From: Flavobacteriales bacterium
GTDB lineage: Bacteria > Bacteroidota > Bacteroidia > Flavobacteriales_D > CAJJDF01
Reading direction: 5' to 3'
DNA length: 64,000 nt
Assembly: GCA_965660305.1 (NCBI GenBank)
Contig: CBFHZD010000002.1
Coordinates: 64,048 to 128,047 of the forward strand
Shown piece by piece: positions 2,628 through 52,546 of this stretch (position 1 is the first letter of the stretch; every line of letters starts with the position of its first letter). Both the position numbers and the translations under genes were made by a program. Under the pieces are notes generated by a model, which made no database searches, had not been told where the DNA came from, and saw only the letters and a program-made list of their open reading frames with translations.

Positions 2628-4502
2628 TTATCGTCCGAGGTAAATTAGTAAAATATTGATGTCGGTTGGTTTTATTCCAGATATTCTTGATGCTTGACCA
2701 ATAGTTTTGGGTGCGATTGTGGCAAGTTTTTCTTTGCTTTCGTTTGACAAGGAGCTGAGTTTTGAGTAGTCCATATCCGCAGGAATTCGTGTGCTTTCCA
2801 GTCGTACTATTTTGTCTGCCACGTTTTGTTCTTTTGAAATGTAGCCGTTGTACTTGATCTGTACTTCTGCTTGTTCCAACACCTCTTCTTGCAAAGAATC
2901 AAGAGTTTTGATTTTTTCAGTGAGTGTTTGTGAGGTTGGTAATACTTCCTTTAGTGAAATATTTGGCCTAGATACAATCTTGTCAAACTTCATTTTTTGA
3001 GAAATCTTGGCGCTGTTTTTGCTTTCTAAAATTGGATTGAGGGCCTCGAAATCTACGCTTGTATCTTTGAGCAACTGAATGAGTGAGTTTGTTTCTTTTA
3101 ACTTCTCTTCCACCCTTTTCATCCTTTCTTCAGAGGCAAGTCCGAGAACGTACCCTTTTGGTGTAAGCCTGATGTCTGCATTGTCTTGCCTGAGCAAAAG
3201 TCGGTACTCAGCTCTTGAGGTAAACATCCTGTATGGCTCTTCGGTTCCTTTTGTGATTAAATCATCAATAAGCACACCAATGTATGATTCGGCTCTGGTT
3301 AAAACAAACTCTTCTTTGTCGTATTTTTTCTGGTGCGAGTTTATTCCGGCAACTAGTCCTTGACAAGCAGCTTCTTCATAACCTGTTGTTCCGTTTATTT
3401 GTCCAGCAAAATAGAGGTTTTCAACCAGTTTCGTTTCTAACGTGTAGTTGAGTTGTGTGGGTGGAAAATAGTCATATTCAATTGCGTATCCTGGTCTGAA
3501 CATTTTGGCGTTTTCAAACCCGGGTATTAATCGCATAGCATTAAACTGAACATCTTCTGGAAGGGAACTTGAGAATCCGTTTACATAAACTTCGCAGGTG
3601 TCCCAACCTTCTGGTTCCACAAATATTTGATGTCTGGTTCGTTCTGCAAAGCGGTCTAGTTTGTCTTCAATAGAGGGGCAATACCTTGGTCCAGATCCCA
3701 TAATTCTACCGTTGAAAAGCGGTGATTTTTCGAACCCTTCACGCAACACATCATGAACTGCTGGGTTAGTATAGGTGATGTAACAACTTCTTTGTTTTTT
3801 AAGAGGTGTTGTTTCGGTCGAATAAGAAAACTTACCTGGGTTTTCGTCACCAGGTTGTTCTTCCATTTTGGAGTAGTCCAAACTTCTGCCGTCTACACGA
3901 GGTGGTGTTCCTGTTTTCATACGACCAGATTCAAACCCAACTTTGCGTAATCTCTCCGTAATTCCTGTTGAAGCTTTTTCTCCTGCTCTACCTCCGCCAA
4001 ATTGTTTTTCTCCCAGGTGTATGGTTCCGTTAAGAAATGTGCCGGCAGTAACAATGACTGAATGCGCTTTTATCTCTATTCCCATTCCTGTCACAACTCC
4101 TTCAATTTTGTTGTTTTCGATGATCAGATCCGTTACGGTATCTTGCCAAAAACTTACATTTGGTGTGTTTTCTAAAGCCATTCTCCAAGCTTCGGCAAAC
4201 CTTTTTCGGTCGCTTTGTGCTCTTGGACTCCACATGGCTGGGCCTTTAGATTTATTAAGTAATTTAAACTGAATCGCGGTTTGGTCTGTGATGATTCCGG
4301 AATACCCGCCTAAGGCATCTATTTCTCTGATTATCTGACCTTTAGCTATTCCGCCCATGGCAGGATTGCAAGACATTTGGGCAATGGTTTCCATGTTCAT
4401 GGTTACCAATAATACGGATGAACCGAGGTTGGCTGCTGCTGCTGCTGCTTCGCAACCCGCATGACCACCTCCTACTACTATTAAGTCGTACTTAGGATGC
4501 AT
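2628..4502 (-). CDS. mnmG: tRNA uridine-5-carboxymethylaminomethyl(34) synthesis enzyme MnmG (GidA)
   Basis: 624 aa. N-terminal FAD motif [15 protein letters not shown], and full-length GidA-like sequence ([21 protein letters not shown]). Confidence 0.97.
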
Positions 4503-30635: not shown

Positions 30636-31109
30636 ATGAAACCAGAAGAAACCATCGATTTTAACATAAGATCCACTTGGCATAAAATTTCTAGAATGTA
30701 TAACATTCAGGCGGCAGAGCACGGAGTGAGTATGGCAACCGGAATGGTTTTATTGAACATAGATTTGAAGGAAGGAACTCCTTCTACGAGTTTGGGTCCC
30801 AAAATGGGAATGGAGTCAAGAAGTTTGACCAGAACACTCAAAAACCTTGAAGATGAAAAGATTATTTACCGACAAGCGGACAAAAAAGACAAGCGGAAAG
30901 TGAGGATTTTCTTGACAGAACTAGGAAAAGAAAAAAGAGAAATTTCGAAAGAAAAAGTGATTCAATTTAATGAACATTTAAGAAGCAACCTTGATAAAAA
31001 AGACTTGAATACCTTCTTTAAGGTAATGGAAAACATAAACGAATTAATAGACGAAAACAATATTTTTTTAGCTCAGCAGCTTCCCGAAAAAGGAAGTTTT
31101 GACAACTAA
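30636..31109 (+). CDS. MarR-family transcriptional regulator
   Basis: 157 aa. Winged-helix segment (LGPKMGMESRSLTRTLKNLEDEKIIYRQADKKDKRKVRIFLTELG). Confidence 0.85.
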   Translation: MKPEETIDFNIRSTWHKISRMYNIQAAEHGVSMATGMVLLNIDLKEGTPSTSLGPKMGMESRSLTRTLKNLEDEKIIYRQADKKDKRKVRIFLTELGKEKREISKEKVIQFNEHLRSNLDKKDLNTFFKVMENINELIDENNIFLAQQLPEKGSFDN

Positions 31110-31128: not shown

Positions 31129-33516
31129 ATGAAAAGAAATATAAGAAGAGTAGCGGTAATTGGATCGGGAGTGATGGGCTCGCGAATTGCTTGTCATTTT
31201 GCTAATGTAGGGTTAGATGTTTTGTTATTGGACATTGTGCCAAACGAAGCCAAAGATTCAAATAGTAAAATGGAAAGAAACAAAATAGTGAATGATGCAC
31301 TAAAATTTGCTTTAAAATCAAACCCTTCACCTATTTACAGTAAAAGTTACGCAAATAGAATTACAACTGGAAACCTGGAGGACGATTTACATTTGGTTTC
31401 AAAAGCTGATTGGATTATTGAGGTTGTGGTGGAAAGGCTAGAAATTAAACACCAAGTTTTTGCCAACATTGAAAAACACAGAAAGCCAGGAACCATTATT
31501 TCATCCAACACATCAGGAATTCCAATTCACATGATGTTGGAGGGAAGAAGTGAAGATTTTCAAAAACATTTTTTAGGAACTCACTTTTTTAATCCTCCGA
31601 GATATCTGAAATTATTTGAAGTAATCCCTACTCCAAAAACTGACCCGGCTGTGGTTGATTTTTTGATGGATTATGGATCCAAAATATTAGGAAAAACTAC
31701 CGTTTTGGCAAAAGACACTCCTGCGTTTATTGCCAACAGAGTTGGAGTATTTTCTATCCAAGCTTTGTTCCATACAGTTGAAGAAATGGGATTAACCGTA
31801 GGTGAAGTGGATAAATTGACTGGCCCAGTGATGGGAAGACCAAAATCTGCCACGTTCCGTACTTGTGATGTGGTGGGACTTGACACATTAGTTCACGTAG
31901 CAAATGGAGTGAAAGCCAATTGCCCAAATGACGAAAGAAGTGATTTGTTTGAAATACCAAGTTATGTTTCCAAAATGGTGGAAAATGGTTGGCTTGGAAG
32001 TAAATCGAAACAAGGTTTTTACAAAAAGGTTAAAAATGCCGAAGGTAAAAGTGAAATTCTTGAATTGAATTTAAAAACGTTGGAATATCAGCCAAAAACG
32101 AGAGGGAACTTTCCAACCCTTGAAATGACAAAATCTGTCGATAATTTGAAAGATAGAACCAAAATGTTGTACAACGGAATGGATAAAGCTGGTGAGTTTT
32201 ACAAAAAATCGTTCAACGGAGTTTTTCAATATGTAACAAACCGTATTCCAGAAATATCTGATGAATTATACCGAATTGATGACGGACTTAAAGCAGGATT
32301 TGGTTGGGAACTAGGGCCATTTGAGTCTTGGGATGCAATTGGAGTAAAACCTGCCATCAAACACATGGAAAAAGCAGACTTAAAGCCTGCACAATGGGTT
32401 TATGAGATGCTTGAGGCTGGAAACGAAACTTTTTATAAGGTAGAAAACGGAACAAGGTTATATTATGATATTCCTAGTAAATCTTACAAAGTAATTCCTG
32501 GTACTGAAAACTTAATTTCTCTTGAAAACTTGAGAGACTCCAATACAGTTTGGAAAAATGCTGGTGTACATATTATTGATTTAGGAGATGGAGTATTGAA
32601 TGTAGAATTTCATACCAAAATGAATACCATTGGAAGTGAAATTCTTCAAGGATTGAACAAAGCCATTGATTTAGCTGAAACCGACCCGCAATGGAAAGGA
32701 ATTGTGATTGCCAACGAAGGTCAAAACTTCTCGGCTGGGGCCAACGTAGGTATGATTTTTATGATGGCAATTGAGCAAGATTGGGACGAATTAAATTTTG
32801 CTGTCAAAACTTTTCAAAACACCATGATGAGGTTGAGGTATTCTTCTATCCCAGTGGTGGCTGCTCCTCACGGAATGGCACTTGGTGGAGGTTGCGAAAT
32901 TTGTTTACACGCAGACAAAGTAATTGCCAATGCAGAAACCTACATGGGATTAGTAGAGTTTGGAGTTGGATTAATCCCTGGTGGAGGTGGAACCAAGGAG
33001 TTTGTTGTTCGTTTGAATGACGAATTAAAAGAGGGAGACATCAGAACAAACCAATTAAGAAATAGATTCTTGACAATTGGTCAAGCCAAAGTTTCTACCT
33101 CAGGAAAAGAAGCGTTTGAATTGGGTTATTTGAGAGAAGGTCAAGACGAAGTAATTGTGAGTAGAGCTCACCAAATTGGCTATGCTAAGCAACAAGTATT
33201 GTTAATGGACGCCAAAGGTTATGTAGAACAACCGCAAAGAACTGACATCGAAGTAATGGGGAACGAAGGAATAGGAATTGTGTATGTGGGAGCTCACTCA
33301 ATGAAATCTGGAAACTACATTTCTGATCATGATCAGTTAATTTCTGAAAAACTTGGGACGGTAATGTGTGGAGGAGAATTATCGAAGAGGACGAAAGTCT
33401 CTGAGCAATATTTATTGGATTTGGAAAGAAAAACGTTCTTGGAGTTGTGCATGCAGGAAAAGACCTTGAAAAGGATTGAGAGTATTTTGAAGACGGGGAA
33501 GGTTCTGAGGAACTAG
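31129..33516 (+). CDS. fadN: Fused 3-hydroxyacyl-CoA dehydrogenase / enoyl-CoA hydratase (FadN/FadB-like)
   Basis: 795 aa. N-terminal Rossmann VAVIGSGVMGSRIA and an HFFNPP motif. A C-terminal crotonase-like region (NFSAGANVG, ALGGGCE). Confidence 0.92.
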   Translation: MKRNIRRVAVIGSGVMGSRIACHFANVGLDVLLLDIVPNEAKDSNSKMERNKIVNDALKFALKSNPSPIYSKSYANRITTGNLEDDLHLVSKADWIIEVVVERLEIKHQVFANIEKHRKPGTIISSNTSGIPIHMMLEGRSEDFQKHFLGTHFFNPPRYLKLFEVIPTPKTDPAVVDFLMDYGSKILGKTTVLAKDTPAFIANRVGVFSIQALFHTVEEMGLTVGEVDKLTGPVMGRPKSATFRTCDVVGLDTLVHVANGVKANCPNDERSDLFEIPSYVSKMVENGWLGSKSKQGFYKKVKNAEGKSEILELNLKTLEYQPKTRGNFPTLEMTKSVDNLKDRTKMLYNGMDKAGEFYKKSFNGVFQYVTNRIPEISDELYRIDDGLKAGFGWELGPFESWDAIGVKPAIKHMEKADLKPAQWVYEMLEAGNETFYKVENGTRLYYDIPSKSYKVIPGTENLISLENLRDSNTVWKNAGVHIIDLGDGVLNVEFHTKMNTIGSEILQGLNKAIDLAETDPQWKGIVIANEGQNFSAGANVGMIFMMAIEQDWDELNFAVKTFQNTMMRLRYSSIPVVAAPHGMALGGGCEICLHADKVIANAETYMGLVEFGVGLIPGGGGTKEFVVRLNDELKEGDIRTNQLRNRFLTIGQAKVSTSGKEAFELGYLREGQDEVIVSRAHQIGYAKQQVLLMDAKGYVEQPQRTDIEVMGNEGIGIVYVGAHSMKSGNYISDHDQLISEKLGTVMCGGELSKRTKVSEQYLLDLERKTFLELCMQEKTLKRIESILKTGKVLRN

Positions 33517-33542
33517 ATGTTCAGACTGACGGATATTCGGAC
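33516..33542. repeat. Left terminal inverted repeat of the four-helix-bundle cassette
   Basis: The reverse complement of GATGTTCAGACTGACGGATATTCGGAC matches 34052..34078 at 23 of 27 positions (manual alignment). It overlaps the last base of the fadN stop codon. Confidence 0.75.
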
Positions 33543-33682
33543 TTTCAGACTTTGGATTCTCTGAAAGACTTTCGGATTGTCAGATTCTCAGATGTTCAGA
33601 CTTTTGTCTCTTTGAAAAAAATTCGGATTTTCAGAAGCTGATGTAGAATATAAATGAATGGTAATAAATTAAAAGAAACGAG

Positions 33683-34033
33683 ATGCACAATTACAGAGAA
33701 TTGAAAATATGGCATAAGGCAATTGATTTTTCTGTTGATATCTATGAACTTGTTGCTGATTTTCCAACTGATGAAAAATTTGGTTTGTTTTCGCAATTAC
33801 GTAGAGCCTCTGTTTCAGTTCCCTCTAATATTGCAGAAGGTTCTAGTCGAGGCACAGAGAAAGATTTTGCTCGATTCTTGACTATGTCTTTAGGTTCTTT
33901 TTTTGAAATTGAGACACAATTAATCATTTCTCAAAGAGTTAATTACATCAAAAATGATGAGCTAGAAGAATTTAAAACTAAAATAACTGATTTAATAAGA
34001 ATGATAATGGCTTTTAAAAAGCATATAAAATAA
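33683..34033 (+). CDS. Four-helix-bundle protein (23S rRNA intervening-sequence protein family)
   Basis: 116 aa. LKIWHKAIDFSVDIYELVADFPTDEKFGLFSQLRRASVSVPSNIAEGSSRGTEKDFARFL..GS..E..TQL, the hallmark pattern of this family. Confidence 0.85.
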   Translation: MHNYRELKIWHKAIDFSVDIYELVADFPTDEKFGLFSQLRRASVSVPSNIAEGSSRGTEKDFARFLTMSLGSFFEIETQLIISQRVNYIKNDELEEFKTKITDLIRMIMAFKKHIK

Positions 34034-34051
34034 AAACTTGTTCGTTTTTCG

Positions 34052-34078
34052 GTCTGAATATCCGAAAATCTGAACATC
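34052..34078. repeat. Right terminal inverted repeat of the four-helix-bundle cassette
   Basis: GTCTGAATATCCGAAAATCTGAACATC, the inverted partner of 33516..33542. Confidence 0.75.
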
Positions 34079-34110
34079 AGAAAATCTAAACATCAGAAAA
34101 TCTAATAAAC
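34065..34110. repeat. Tandem 16-nt repeat AAAATCT(G/A)AACATCAG, about 2.9 copies, ending at the fadA ATG
   Basis: Direct reading gives AAAATCTGAACATCAG AAAATCTAAACATCAG AAAATCTAATAAAC, then the ATG. Confidence 0.8.
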
Positions 34111-35289
34111 ATGAAAGATTCATATATAGTAGCAGGATACCGAACCGCAGTGGGAAAAGCACCAAGAGGAATGTTTAATTTCTACCGAGCAGATGATTTA
34201 TCGGCAGATGTAATTAGGCATTTGATGAAAAATGTACCGAATGTGGCAGCTCAACAAATTGACGATGTCATTGTAGGGAACGCAACCCCGGAGGCTGAAC
34301 AAGGACTAAACATTGGAAGAATGGTTTCATTAATGGGGCTAGATTCTGAAAAAGTTCCAGGAATGACAGTAAATAGATATTGCTCTTCCGGATTGGAAAC
34401 CATTGCAATTGCCTCTGCCAAGATAAACTCTGGAATGGCAGATTGTATCATTGCGGGCGGAGTAGAAACGATGTCGCCAATTCCTTTTGGAGGTTGGAGA
34501 TTAGTTCCTAATGCAAGTGTTTCGAAGAAAAGCCAAGAATGGTATTGGGGAATGGGATTAACTGCCGAAGCAGTTGCTAAACAATATGGGGTTACCAGAG
34601 AAATGCAAGATGAATTTGCTGTAAACTCTCATGCGAAAGCTGAAAAAGCAATTGATAGTGGAAGATTTCAAGAGGATATTGTTCCCATATTCATCAAAGA
34701 AACTTATTTGGATGAAAACGAAAAGCAACAAACTCGTGATATTGTTTGTGAAACTGACGAAGGAGTAAGAAGAGGAACAAATATGGAAGGTTTGGCAAGA
34801 TTGCGCCCAGTATTTGATGCGAGAGGAACGGTTACGGCCGGAAATGCCTCTCAAACTTCGGATGGAGCGGCATTTGTAATGGTAGTTTCTGAAAAGTTTT
34901 TGAAAGAAAACAACTTAACTCCTATTGCTCGTTTAGCTTCATATGCTGTTGCTGGACTTGAACCAAGAATCATGGGGATGGGTCCTTTGTATGCAATGCC
35001 AAAAGCATTGAAACAAGCGGGACTTTCTATGAATGATATTGAGCAAATAGAATTAAACGAAGCTTTTGCATCACAATCGGTGGCAGTAATAAATGAATTA
35101 GGATTAAATCCAGATATCGTGAATGTAAATGGAGGTGCAATTGCACTTGGTCATCCACTTGGATGTACTGGAGCGAAATTATCTGTTCAGTTATTTAACG
35201 AAATGAGAAAAAGAGGACAGAAATATGGGGCTGTAACAATGTGTGTGGGAACTGGGCAAGGTGCTGCTGGGATTTATGAGTTGCTTTAA
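34111..35289 (+). CDS. fadA: Acetyl-CoA C-acyltransferase (3-ketoacyl-CoA thiolase)
   Basis: 392 aa. Active-site motifs NRYCSSGLE, GHPLGCTG and CVGTGQG. Confidence 0.95.
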   Translation: MKDSYIVAGYRTAVGKAPRGMFNFYRADDLSADVIRHLMKNVPNVAAQQIDDVIVGNATPEAEQGLNIGRMVSLMGLDSEKVPGMTVNRYCSSGLETIAIASAKINSGMADCIIAGGVETMSPIPFGGWRLVPNASVSKKSQEWYWGMGLTAEAVAKQYGVTREMQDEFAVNSHAKAEKAIDSGRFQEDIVPIFIKETYLDENEKQQTRDIVCETDEGVRRGTNMEGLARLRPVFDARGTVTAGNASQTSDGAAFVMVVSEKFLKENNLTPIARLASYAVAGLEPRIMGMGPLYAMPKALKQAGLSMNDIEQIELNEAFASQSVAVINELGLNPDIVNVNGGAIALGHPLGCTGAKLSVQLFNEMRKRGQKYGAVTMCVGTGQGAAGIYELL

Positions 35290-35290
35290 C

Positions 35291-35418
35291 AAAGTTGGGC
35301 TTCGAGACAATTTTTCTTACAGAAAAACCCCTCAGCCAACAGACTTTGCACAAAACTGAACCCTGAGGGTTTTGTTTCTTTTTCAGAAACAAAATGTCTC
35401 GAAGGGTGGACTTGAGAA
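35291..35418. repeat. Nested-palindrome intergenic element (AAAGTTGGGCTTCGAG family)
   Basis: Outer inverted repeat CTTCGAGACA (35300..35309) / TGTCTCGAAG (35395..35404). Inner inverted repeat CCCCTCAG / CTGAGGG. The 5' 16-mer AAAGTTGGGCTTCGAG recurs exactly at 45061..45076. Confidence 0.6.
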
Positions 35419-35513
35419 AAACAAATTGAATTAAAACCTAACAGGAGAAAAAATATCTGTTTGGATATGAAAACACTAAAGACTGAATACTAACGACTAA
35501 ATACTTGAATAAA

Positions 35514-37289
35514 ATGGAAGCAATAAAAGGAGGTGAGTTTATCATCAGAGACACGAAAGCAAACGAAATTTTTATCCCAGAAGAGTGGACGGAAGAGCAA
35601 AAAATGCTAGCCGATATGTGCAAAGATTTCATCAAAACTGAAATCATGCCACACTTGGATAGAATGGATTCTATGGAAGAAGGATTTATGCCTGCACTCA
35701 TGGACAAAGCCGGTGAATTAGGCCTACTTAGTATTTCAATACCCGAGGAATTGGGAGGAATGGGAATGGATTTTAAAACGAGTATGCTTGCAACCGAAGC
35801 ATTGGGAGGAAGCTACTCTTTCTCAGTAGCTTACGGGGCACATACTGGAATTGGAACACTTCCTTTGTTGTATTATGGAAACGAGGAACAAAAAGCAAAA
35901 TACATCCCAAAATTAGCTTCAGGAGAATGGAAAGCTTCTTATTGTTTGACAGAACCAAGTGCAGGAAGTGACGCCAACTCTGGAAAGACGAAAGCTGTTT
36001 TGTCAGAAGACGGAACGCACTACGAAATTACAGGACAAAAAATGTGGATTACCAATGCTGGTTTTTCTCATTTGCACACTGTTTTTGCAAAAATTGATGA
36101 CGATGAAAAGCTAACTGCTTTTTTAATTGAAGCGGATAGCGAAGGAATTACGTTGAATGCCGAAGAAAAAAAGATGGGAATCAAAGGTTCTTCTACGCGA
36201 CAAGTATTTTATAATAAAGTAAAAGTACCCGTTGAAAACATGCTTTCTGAAAGGGAGAACGGATTCAAAATCGCTTTGAATATTCTGAATATTGGTCGAA
36301 TCAAATTATCTATCGGTACAACTGGAGCTGCGAAAGAAATTGTAACTGAGTCAGCAAAATATGCTAACGAAAGAGAGCAATTTGGAAGATCCATTGCTAA
36401 ATACGGAGCAATCAGAAACAAGCTAGGAAAAATGGCAGTTTCTATTTTTGCGAGTGAATCTGCAAATTATAGAGCGGCACAAAATATTGACGATGCCATC
36501 AAAGCATTGACAGAAGGAGGGATGAGTAAAGAACAAGCAACCCTGAAAGGAATTGAGCAGTTTGCACCCGAATGTGCTCTGCTTAAGGTTGTAGGTTCTG
36601 ATTGTTTAGATTTTGTTGTAGATGAAGGGGTTCAAATTCATGGAGGAATGGGATATTCTGCCGAAACCTTGGTCGAGAGAGCATACCGAGACGCGCGAAT
36701 CAATAAAATTTTTGAAGGAACGAATGAAATTAACAGACTTCTTTTGGTTAATATGATTCTGAAAAAAGGAATGAAAGGAGAAATAGATTTGATGGGACCA
36801 GCGATGAAAGTTGCAGATGAATTGATGTCCGTACCGAGTTTTGAAGAAGGAGAAGGAGGATTATTTGCTGTACAGAAAAAATCCTTAACTGGGTTTAAAA
36901 AAGCTATTTTGATGGTTGCAGGATCTGCGGTTCAGAAACTAATGGCAACTCTAGCCAAAGAACAAGAAATTTTGATGAACAATGCAGACATGATTATTGA
37001 CACCTATTTGGCTGAATCCATCATGCTAAGAGTAGAAAAATTAGTGGAACAGAAAGGAGAAGAAGCTTGCTCAGTTCAAATAGAGATGGTAAAAGCGTTC
37101 TTTTATGAGGCTTCTCAGCGCATAAATAAATCTGCTACAGACGCTTTAAACTCTTTTGCAGAAGGTGATGAACTCAAAATGATGTTGATGGGATTGAAAC
37201 GATTCACCAAACACGAACCTCACAATATTAAATCTTCTTACCAGAAAATTGCGTTAAAAATAATTGAGGAGAACGAGTATTGCTTTTAA
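35514..37289 (+). CDS. fadE: Acyl-CoA dehydrogenase (long FadE-type)
   Basis: About 590 aa with typical ACAD motifs (CLTEPSAGSD, GGMGYS, RINKIFEGTNEI). The ORF track starts at a TTG at 35505. The ATG at 35514 is preferred. Confidence 0.92.
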   Translation: MEAIKGGEFIIRDTKANEIFIPEEWTEEQKMLADMCKDFIKTEIMPHLDRMDSMEEGFMPALMDKAGELGLLSISIPEELGGMGMDFKTSMLATEALGGSYSFSVAYGAHTGIGTLPLLYYGNEEQKAKYIPKLASGEWKASYCLTEPSAGSDANSGKTKAVLSEDGTHYEITGQKMWITNAGFSHLHTVFAKIDDDEKLTAFLIEADSEGITLNAEEKKMGIKGSSTRQVFYNKVKVPVENMLSERENGFKIALNILNIGRIKLSIGTTGAAKEIVTESAKYANEREQFGRSIAKYGAIRNKLGKMAVSIFASESANYRAAQNIDDAIKALTEGGMSKEQATLKGIEQFAPECALLKVVGSDCLDFVVDEGVQIHGGMGYSAETLVERAYRDARINKIFEGTNEINRLLLVNMILKKGMKGEIDLMGPAMKVADELMSVPSFEEGEGGLFAVQKKSLTGFKKAILMVAGSAVQKLMATLAKEQEILMNNADMIIDTYLAESIMLRVEKLVEQKGEEACSVQIEMVKAFFYEASQRINKSATDALNSFAEGDELKMMLMGLKRFTKHEPHNIKSSYQKIALKIIEENEYCF

Positions 37290-52295: not shown

Positions 52296-52322
52296 CTAAC
52301 AGGTGTTTTTTCTCCTGTTAGG
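52296..52322. repeat. CTAACAGG-N10-CCTGTTAG hairpin (copy 3 of 4)
   Basis: 8-9-bp stem with loop TGTTTTTTCT, 50 nt downstream of the response regulator stop. Confidence 0.65.
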
Positions 52323-52415
52323 TTTGAAATAAAAGTTAGGCGTTACAACATAGATTTTGCTTCAACCAAATGAATAGTTGCTAAAAAAACATTACGTTAC
52401 AAGCGTGACAGCAAA

Positions 52416-52441
52416 CCTAACAGGAAGAAAGACCTGTTAGG
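52416..52441. repeat. CCTAACAGG-N8-CCTGTTAGG hairpin (copy 4 of 4, loop inverted relative to copy 3)
   Basis: Perfect 9-bp stem with loop AAGAAAGA, roughly the reverse complement of the T-rich loops of the other copies. Confidence 0.65.
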
Positions 52442-52546
52442 ATATGAATAGAAAAGAACAGCATAGAGTGAAAAAATCTCGTACTTTTGAATAACAAACT
52501 CAATAGGTTTTAAAAACCTTCCAGGTCTGAGAAATAAAACAACTAC

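Follow-up and report, generated by a model that had tools for sequence, protein, structure and literature searches.

Between the genes fadN and fadA, in a 64,000-nt stretch of DNA from a Flavobacteriales bacterium (assembly GCA_965660305.1, contig CBFHZD010000002.1, positions 64,048 to 128,047 of the forward strand; hereafter the window), lies an element that resembles the intervening sequences (IVSs) found in bacterial 23S rRNA. We propose that positions 33516-34110 form a complete IVS-type cassette, in which a promoterless gene for a four-helix-bundle (4HB) protein and two complementary repeat arrays fill the fadN-fadA spacer, and in which the two arrays, or arms, pair within the fad mRNA. 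We assign this reading a probability of about 0.6. The evidence supports an IVS-like, polymorphic and probably co-transcribed cassette. Loci from other genomes and contigs are referred to by number (L001 and following), and the features of the window are collected in Table 1.

The spacer measures 594 nt, from the fadN TAG stop (33514-33516) to the fadA ATG at 34111, and the first base of the 5' arm is the last base of that stop codon. The 5' arm, about 120 nt long, is G-rich and C-poor, is built from the unit TTCRGAYN and contains a 51-nt internal duplication (33515-33565 and 33566-33616). The 3' arm, about 55 nt long, is C-rich and G-poor: Tandem Repeats Finder (TRF) reports an array at 34053-34103 with a period of 16 nt, 3.2 copies and 91% matches, and an 8-nt sub-period runs within this 16-nt super-period. 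In the window the arm units read TCTGAANA and TCAGAAAA. The left edge, GATGTTCAGACTGACGGATATTCGGAC (33516-33542), matches the reverse complement of 34052-34078 in 23 of 27 positions, and longer, imperfect inverted pairs link the arms as well (39 nt at 79%, 36 nt at 81%). Because RNAduplex boundaries over-extend into coding sequence, arm limits were set from the TRF arrays. Forward matches to TTCRGAYT number 11 in the 64 kb, six of them within 33520-33622, and neither another cluster of arm units nor a second 4HB gene was found within the window. When the open reading frame (ORF) is replaced by a GAAA tetraloop, the arms fold at -62 kcal/mol (z -4.2, with 0 of 200 shuffles as good), and the arm-arm duplex reaches z -5.3; as in a 23S IVS, complementary termini close the element as a long stem.

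These results agree in large part with an initial annotation made from the letters of the window. The spacer starting on the last base of the stop codon, the 23/27 inverted match, the 116-aa gene of the 23S-IVS type and the 16-nt repeat leading up to fadA were all described there, and all are confirmed. Its 27-nt terminal inverted repeats exist as a pair, but they are portions of arrays of 8-nt units that extend over the lengths given above. A second copy of the left-edge motif, GATGTTCAGAC at 33591, had been read as inverted; it is in fact a direct copy, both copies lying on the plus strand and none on the minus strand.

The 116-aa ORF is an intact member of its family. It matches PF05635 over model positions 1-105 of 106 (E 6e-38; 129.7 bits against a cut-off of 33.8) and TIGR02436, 'four helix bundle protein' (128 bits, cut-off 24), and its length falls within the ~110-130 aa usual for the family. 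The core motif S[VI]xSNIAEG..R is conserved: across 21 sequences S45, N49, E52 and G53 are invariant, and S48, I50, A51 and R56 nearly so. A profile of the protein and its relatives matches the PDB entries 2GSC (E 3e-33) and 2RLD, each deposited with five identical chains, and Xcc0516 is described as a homopentamer (PMC4990558); a homopentameric toroid of four-helix bundles would be the form expected for this family. No match to a PADLOC defence family was obtained at E up to 0.01. The Avd equivalog model NF033474 scored 19.2 bits, below its cut-off of 80, and Pfam bAvd gave weak matches to close relatives of the protein.

Several assignments of the element were tried and rejected. A diversity-generating retroelement (DGR) does not fit, as no reverse transcriptase or template/variable repeat adjoins the cassette, whose neighbours are fad genes, and the Avd model stays below its cut-off. 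An rRNA IVS proper is rejected, since the flanks are fadN and fadA and Rfam gave no rRNA match, either here or in 12 related loci. A dedicated component of the fad operon is rejected as well: the gene is absent in close relatives, and its own relatives occur downstream of panB, between tRNA genes and in phages.

The gene order marR-fadN-fadA-fadE recurs in related loci, and in the window the four genes, as identified with Pfam, are co-oriented. As a promoter criterion we used the Bacteroidota -7 box, TAnnTTTG, instead of a sigma-70 model, which is unsuited to Bacteroidota and whose matches were no more frequent than in shuffled sequences. The box is absent from the plus strand over the 31395-35908 interval scanned, and no terminator-like hairpin occurs between fadN and fadA, in keeping with the single polycistronic transcript suggested by the initial annotation. 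Because the spacer offers neither a promoter box nor a terminator, the 4HB gene is likely promoterless and co-transcribed with the fad operon.

To see the junction in other species, we scanned for FadA in one genome per species and obtained 50 loci. Eleven close relatives are marine Flavobacteriales/Crocinitomicaceae metagenome-assembled genomes (MAGs); their FadA is 94-98% identical and their flanking DNA about 86-89%. The initial annotation had suspected an insertion, and both empty and filled sites do exist. The junction is empty in L001, L004, L006 and L042, where a 31-nt, G-free and unstructured spacer separates the two genes. The cassette type of the window ('A') is present at fadN-fadA in L003, L007 and L009, and also in L051-54, recovered through the protein search. 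L005 and L010 have a type B cassette, with a 4HB protein only 45% identical and TAGTCYTA / TAAAGACT arm units; L008 has a third type, with ATCTAANA-type arms; and in L002 the place is taken by an unrelated, non-coding insert of 233 nt. Neighbour-joining trees built from the flanking genes mix these states: the sister of filled L009 is the empty pair L004/L006, that of type-A L003/L051 is type-B L010, and that of L007 is L002. Several gains, losses or replacements are therefore needed. Like an IVS, the cassette is sporadically present at a conserved site among close relatives. Comparison of filled with empty junctions revealed no target-site duplication.

In more distant Bacteroidota, further 4HB cassettes with other arms occupy fadN-fadA or fadA-fadE (L012, L016, L018, L020, L023, L033, L037, L039 and L047). 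L017 retains intact arms around a truncated 4HB remnant, and L050 (z -3.7) and L023 (z -6.7) hold ORF-less inverted arrays that fold as hairpins; L026 has 11 array units on one side. Many genomes have a fadN-fadA junction of less than 20 nt. Judging from these junctions, sister lineages appear to have lost the cassette, kept only a hairpin without the ORF, or acquired unrelated 4HB cassettes in its place. Other kinds of insert were also seen at this position. In a group of Bacteroidia (L022, L024, L025, L027 and L049) the fadN-fadA interval, of about 620-770 nt, holds an ORF of about 195 aa and no 4HB cassette; this ORF has a signal-peptide-like N-terminus and weak MORN_2 repeats, and in L022 and L049 short repeat arrays lie between it and fadA. 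Two Bacteroidetes MAGs, L021 and L045, have GC-rich inverted repeats of another kind (GCCCTCTCCCGACCTCCCC ... GGGGAGGTTGGAGAGGC).

The cassette of the window is an old resident of its junction. All homologues 71-94% identical to the window protein whose contexts were looked up are at fadN-fadA. Between the window and L007, L009, L051 and L054, dS is 0.75-1.15 for the 4HB gene and 0.76-1.3 for the flanking fadN/fadA segments, and dN/dS of the 4HB gene is 0.10-0.15. As the cassette and its flanking genes have equal dS, these values indicate vertical co-divergence under purifying selection, rather than recent transfer, within a genus-level group of marine Flavobacteriales. The two arms differ in what is conserved. 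Of the 45 columns of the 3' arm compared across six sister cassettes, 41 show no variation; in the 5' arm the units are conserved and the copy number varies, the window having about 70 nt more than its sisters. Because the 3' arm is nearly invariant while synonymous sites are about half saturated, it should be functional and not a decaying scar. In one type-A sub-lineage a premature stop leaves 95 of the 116 aa, with the arms intact (L003, 3582-3869; L185-L187, 2501-2788); this truncated form is seen on nine contigs and hence persists.

Over longer distances, cassettes change address. Pairs of 4HB proteins at least 90% identical lie in homologous contexts in 70 of 70 cases, whereas contexts are unrelated for 5 of 26 pairs at 70-90% identity and for 22 of 51 at 60-70%. 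Relocated pairs (L070/L093; L033 with L087/L088) keep similar arm units; the moving unit therefore consists of the arms plus the ORF.

We then characterized the architecture on a larger scale. A protein search returned 3009 relatives (E ≤ 1e-10); a profile scan yielded 80 metagenome loci and 32 viral-contig loci, and a hidden Markov model identified 148 4HB ORFs in all loci. Arm complementarity was assessed in 112 non-redundant 4HB cassettes, with mononucleotide shuffles plus non-cognate controls. In context look-ups, the closest relatives (53-78% identity) again lay at fadN-fadA, and others (54-57%) were located downstream of panB. Cultured carriers include Aureibaculum sp. 2210JD6-5, with a fadA-fadE cassette (L033), Algibacter luteus and Polaribacter, with a panB cassette (L068/L070), and Flavobacterium columnare, with a gmk-nadD cassette (PMC5524665). 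Of the 55 metagenome cassettes for which both neighbouring genes were called, 48 share the orientation of both.

Nearly every cassette comprises a 5' array and a complementary 3' array whose unit is specific to that cassette, for instance TAGATTGC/GTCTAAAA, AAGACAAA/TTTGTCTT, GAATAGA/TCTATTC, GGTGTTGG/CCAACACC or GGCAGAA/TTCTGCC. Arm complementarity is found, conserved and covarying, across cassettes. Arm duplexes have a median z of -3.3 and fall below -2 in 73% of the metagenome sample; an ungapped score restricted to Watson-Crick pairs has a median of 14 for cognate and 7 for non-cognate arms. Cognate arms exceed the non-cognate 95th percentile in 81% of cases and beat all 15 random partners in 75%. 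The initial annotation had asked whether other 4HB genes carry the same arms: about 100 cassettes do have complementary arms, but their units differ and no terminal inverted repeat is shared. Autocorrelation peaks at a lag of 7 nt (0.40-0.42, background ~0.28), with period 8 as a minor class that includes the window. Close to 4HB ORFs (within 150 nt), TRF detects arrays at about 9 times the density found elsewhere. The arrays open a median of 1 nt past the upstream stop codon, and a median of 7 nt separates their end from the next start codon. In every sequence family G is abundant and C scarce in the 5' arm, with the reverse in the 3' arm; this polarity, belonging to an inverted repeat, reads alike on either strand.

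Arms are not shared within a genome either: L016, L020 and L074 each have two cassettes with different arms, which argues against a single trans-acting factor recognising arms by sequence. For 32 of the 112 cassettes (29%), exact 13-mers taken from the arms are found again elsewhere in the same locus, within the ±2.5-4 kb covered, compared with 5.6% for unrelated loci; this hints at local spread of arrays, with a control that leaves genome-specific oligonucleotide usage in. ORF-less arrays whose units match the 4HB arms of the same locus were observed at neighbouring junctions in L051 (4588-4812), L167 (3975-4100) and L137 (400-480). The L051 set consists of type-A-like arrays in the fadA-fadE spacer, and the L137 array of heptamers (CAGTGGT / ACTGACA) similar to the STRR and TAACTGA repeats discussed below.

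Judged from all these loci, the cassette of the window appears to be one of a large class present at Bacteroidota operon junctions, between tRNA genes and in phage genomes. The tRNA case is L129 (1230-1851), with TTTAGTA / TACTAAA arms; located between tRNA-Met and tRNA-Glu and co-oriented with both, this cassette is inside a tRNA transcription unit. An Rfam gathering-threshold search of 12 related loci with large ORF-free flanks found no rRNA-embedded cassette, the two tRNAs of L129 being the only matches. On the viral contigs L175 (403-3486, 4HB ORF 2459-2860) and L153 (1-3480, 4HB ORF 2495-2851), a methyltransferase ORF reads through the whole cassette, and L154 and L172 are probably similar. 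The host is an Eco57I/PglX-like N6-adenine methyltransferase, to which the arms and gene add about 140 aa; the 4HB gene is on the same strand in another frame, and the host frame is open in two diverged examples (GC 0.38 and 0.53). Directly after its cassette-bearing methyltransferase, L153 has a second, divergent PF05635 gene (3508-3897; E 2e-16), in which GANYRAA replaces SNIAEG.

Promoters follow orientation. A TAnnTTTG box within 60 nt upstream of the ATG is found in 3 of 69 co-oriented cassettes, for a background of 2% of sequence windows. It is found in 8 of the 12 cassettes that are antisense to both neighbours, where it occupies a stereotyped position within the 5' arm, 22-27 nt upstream; on viral contigs, most cassettes are antisense. 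Since the box follows orientation, the 4HB gene would be expressed either by host read-through or from its own promoter. In the latter case the promoter inside the 5' arm leaves this arm outside the 4HB mRNA, so that the arms can pair only in the host transcript or in DNA.

How does the cassette relate to known systems? The nearest is the 23S rRNA IVS with its S23p/PF05635 gene, present in Coxiella, Leptospira, Brucella and others, whose protein belongs to the same family. In both, complementary termini able to form a long stem enclose an ORF, which lies in a longer host transcript in the same orientation, is sporadic among relatives and comes with no recombinase. They differ in that the host transcript is here a protein-coding operon and not rRNA, related cassettes lying between tRNA genes or in phages; in that the arms are tandem arrays of 7-8 nt, whereas an IVS has a unique stem of ~28 bp; and in that excision by RNase III, demonstrated for the IVS (PMC4990558), would apply to the cassette by analogy only. 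The Avd protein of DGRs has a homologous four-helix-bundle fold and works with RNA pairing around a template, but the cassette has neither an adjacent reverse transcriptase nor a template/variable repeat.

Other comparisons concern the repeats. Small genes flanked by inverted, hairpin-forming repeats are typical of repetitive extragenic palindromic (REP/REPIN) elements with their REP-associated tyrosine transposase (RAYT). As with REPINs, ORF-less hairpins of the same kind occur in other intergenic spacers; yet the 4HB protein is not an HUH/Y1 transposase, and the repeats are specific to each cassette instead of forming one family per genome. The foldback (FB) transposons of Drosophila have long terminal inverted repeats made of short tandem units in variable copy number, but these are eukaryotic, have kilobase arms and are unrelated in sequence and proteins, so that the analogy is one of form only. 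The short tandemly repeated repetitive (STRR) heptamers of Cyanobacteria are comparable arrays. Direct repeats of the heptamer TAACTGA precede start codons in Beggiatoaceae, Cyanobacteria and some Bacteroidetes (MacGregor 2015, PMC4679880). They share with cassette arrays tandem units of about 7 nt, an intergenic position ending a few nt before a start codon and a presence that varies between close relatives, and some cassette arms (L137, L078) have TAACTGA- or STRR-like units. The window 3' arm has the same layout, with an 8-nt unit and an end 7 nt before the fadA ATG, although its units are not TAACTGA. The TAACTGA-type arrays were described as one-sided, lacking a partner array or any connection with 4HB genes, whereas cassette arrays form complementary pairs that enclose a gene; neither the paper nor its supplement mentions the 4HB family (PMC4679880).

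The mechanism that we favour can be stated in three steps. First, the cassette would be transcribed within the fad operon mRNA, as suggested by the lack of promoter and terminator. Second, the G-rich 5' array and the C-rich 3' array would form an imperfect RNA duplex of ~50-60 bp, looping out the 4HB cistron and setting the fadN stop beside the fadA start, which would allow the operon to tolerate the insertion. Third, the duplex would be a plausible RNase III substrate, by analogy with the 23S rRNA IVS, and the 4HB protein itself may bind it, by analogy with Avd; the G-poor 3' arm would double as the fadA leader. The Coxiella 23S IVS, which encodes a protein of the same family and whose terminal stem measures 28 bp, is cleaved in vitro by RNase III (PMC4990558). 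Avd is reported to bind DGR RNA stem-loops and to need paired segments upstream and downstream of the template (bioRxiv 10.1101/2023.10.23.563531).

Several points weigh against this mechanism. Co-transcription, RNA pairing and cleavage are all steps that we infer. The long stem expected by the initial annotation is strong for the arms alone and for their duplex, but the full 626-nt fold, in which the long-range closing stem is present, has an unexceptional energy (z -1.6) because the AT-rich ORF dominates it. Arm mismatches provide no RNA-specific signal, as sense-strand G:U pairs (68) are not in excess over A:C (75). Antisense cassettes keep their arms, which speaks against an RNA-only view: there the arms should be unable to act within the 4HB mRNA itself. 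Lastly, the near-invariance of the 3' arm exceeds what base pairing needs, and may reflect a role as fadA leader or in protein binding.

A rival explanation lies at the DNA level. Inverted arrays could act as a cruciform or single-stranded DNA hairpin in replication or recombination, leading to insertion, excision and deletion, with template switching keeping the arms complementary and the RNA stem a by-product. This serious rival, which may coexist with an RNA role, is in our view possible rather than probable. It accounts for the lack of G:U versus A:C asymmetry, transitions being enriched equally on both strands, and for the persistence of arms at antisense cassettes, where the cassette transcripts do not include the 5' arm. 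ORF-less hairpins and the clean 31-nt empty site are the expected products of hairpin-mediated deletion, and the unstable copy number of the arrays (the longer window 5' arm, the 11 one-sided units of L026) and the recurrence of same-unit arrays at neighbouring junctions also fit. What it explains less well is a 3' arm far more conserved than synonymous sites at dS ~1, a sign of function rather than mere homogenisation, together with the nucleotide precision with which arms adjoin stop and start codons. Moreover, no recombinase is associated with the cassettes, and the G-rich/C-rich polarity of all families suggests a constraint at the transcript level.

Alternatively, the arrays may be iterated protein-binding sites, arm complementarity being secondary. 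The binder could be the pentameric 4HB protein, for autoregulation or for protection or packaging of the transcript, or a host single-strand-binding factor. We consider this unlikely. Units vary widely while the proteins keep the same conserved residues, and a pure binding-site model does not require cognate arms to be complementary. On the other side stand the strict 7- or 8-nt periodicity, the conservation of the 3' arm beyond pairing need and the purifying selection on the 4HB protein. The five-chain homologues 2GSC and 2RLD and the homopentamer Xcc0516 (PMC4990558) would suit iterated sites, as would the reported binding of Avd to RNA stem-loops (bioRxiv 10.1101/2023.10.23.563531) and the proposal that pre-start heptamer arrays bind a post-transcriptional regulator (MacGregor 2015, PMC4679880).

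A broader reading, quite unlikely when all of its parts are taken jointly, would regard 4HB genes with inverted heptamer or octamer arrays as a previously unrecognised class of self-maintaining guests of bacterial transcription units. Its pentameric 4HB protein would recognise the duplex or repeats formed by the arms of its own cassette and would direct how the host transcript is processed; it might also govern how arrays and cassettes are copied to further junctions, by means of host RNase III, recombination or a reverse transcriptase. Under the same joint judgement, the 23S rRNA IVS would count as a special case, the satellites would be the unexplained heptamer arrays of Bacteroidota, Cyanobacteria and Beggiatoaceae, and the Avd of DGRs, whose RNA has paired flanks, would have arisen from this class by domestication.

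Very unlikely, in turn, is a host regulatory spacer, whose hairpin and G-poor leader would determine how stable or how well translated fadN and fadA are relative to each other, with the 4HB ORF as an incidental passenger. ORF-less inverted arrays at the same junction in L050 and L023, a heptamer array before the window fadE start with no 4HB gene, and strong 3' arm conservation directly upstream of fadA are compatible with such a role. Yet close relatives manage with a 31-nt unstructured spacer, and many genomes with less than 20 nt; 4HB genes located in unrelated operons, amid tRNA genes or on phage genomes have the same architecture around them; purifying selection acts on the ORF; and arrays are enriched ~9-fold next to 4HB genes. 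As for the non-autonomous, multicopy mobile cassette envisaged by the initial annotation, a classical element of the miniature inverted-repeat (MITE) kind with a transposase in trans recognising the 27-nt repeats would account for terminal inverted repeats and for a site filled or empty depending on the relative, but it is largely refuted and its probability negligible, given no second arm copy in 64 kb, close relatives of the cassette all at one junction and co-diverged with the fadN-fadA locus, no target-site duplication, and arms that are tandem arrays differing between cassettes even in one genome (L016, L020, L074).

A single locus is of modest interest in itself, but this one exposes a widespread, stereotyped and apparently undescribed architecture. 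Our search of open-access papers and preprints yielded no account of operon-junction 4HB genes with paired repeat arms, a prior description being possible. The function and origin of IVSs and of S23p/4HB proteins were called unclear in 2016 and 2024 (PMC4990558, PMC11270868). The gene-plus-stem unit is common outside rRNA, where mRNA operon junctions, tRNA intervals, phage genomes and a methyltransferase ORF all harbour it, on a stereotyped plan: paired arms abut the neighbouring stop and start codons, and a promoter is present only when the cassette is antisense. The IVS question can thereby be moved to genetically tractable Flavobacteriia and to non-essential operons, where arms and ORF are freely mutable. 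The cassettes also provide a possible explanation for some unexplained pre-start heptamer arrays, and would be a frequent, unannotated source of long RNA duplexes in Bacteroidota operons that could affect mRNA processing, polarity and metagenome assembly.

Table 1. Features of the fad region in the window, and promoter boxes of antisense cassettes in viral loci
Feature	Position	Strand	Basis or remark
MarR-family regulator	30636..31109	+	First gene of the conserved marR-fadN-fadA-fadE block; Pfam MarR E 2.9e-9
fadN, 795 aa, 3-hydroxyacyl-CoA dehydrogenase/enoyl-CoA hydratase fusion	31129..33516	+	Pfam 3HCDH_N, 3HCDH, ECH_1
5' arm, ~15 degenerate 8-nt units	33516..33636	+	Repeat and tandem-array analysis
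4HB gene leader, A-rich, non-repeated, without TAnnTTTG -7 box	33637..33682	+	Sequence
4HB gene, 116 aa, PF05635/TIGR02436, intact	33683..34033	+	Family-model matches
3' arm, TCYGAANA array complementary to 5' arm	34049..34103	+	Repeat and tandem-array analysis
Spacer remainder AATAAAC, 7 nt, from 3' arm to fadA ATG	34104..34110	+	Sequence
fadA thiolase, 392 aa	34111..35289	+	Pfam Thiolase_N, Thiolase_C
fadA-fadE spacer, other small non-coding element and five heptamers	35290..35504	+	Outside the 4HB cassette
fadE-like acyl-CoA dehydrogenase, 594 aa	35505..37289	+	Pfam Acyl-CoA_dh_N, _M, _1, _C
Antisense cassettes (viral loci L152, L163-166, L170, L171, L176, L178, L182)	Region ~20-30 nt before 4HB ATG		TAnnTTTG in 8 of 12 antisense cassettes

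The fadA-fadE junction, next to that of the cassette, is also occupied. Rfam searches of both spacers, fadN-fadA and fadA-fadE, gave sub-threshold noise only. Abutting the fadE start, at 35471-35505, are five heptamers (ACTAAAG, ACTGAAT, ACTAACG, ACTAAAT and ACTTGAA) with no 4HB gene nearby; the unit resembles the type-B 3' arm of L005 and L010 (ACTAAAGACT), and the heptamers may be the relic of a lost cassette or a free-standing leader array. The rest of the spacer holds a second small non-coding element (35291-35470, plus strand) with the conserved blocks GTTGGGCTTCGAnACAATTTTTCTT ... CCTAACAGGAG ... CTGTTnGGAnATGAAAA, homologous to the 233-nt fadN-fadA insert of L002 (L002 3759-3991). Its hairpin module, CCTAACAGG-N-CCTGTTAGG, has two further copies in the window, at 52296-52445, where they bracket about 100 nt.

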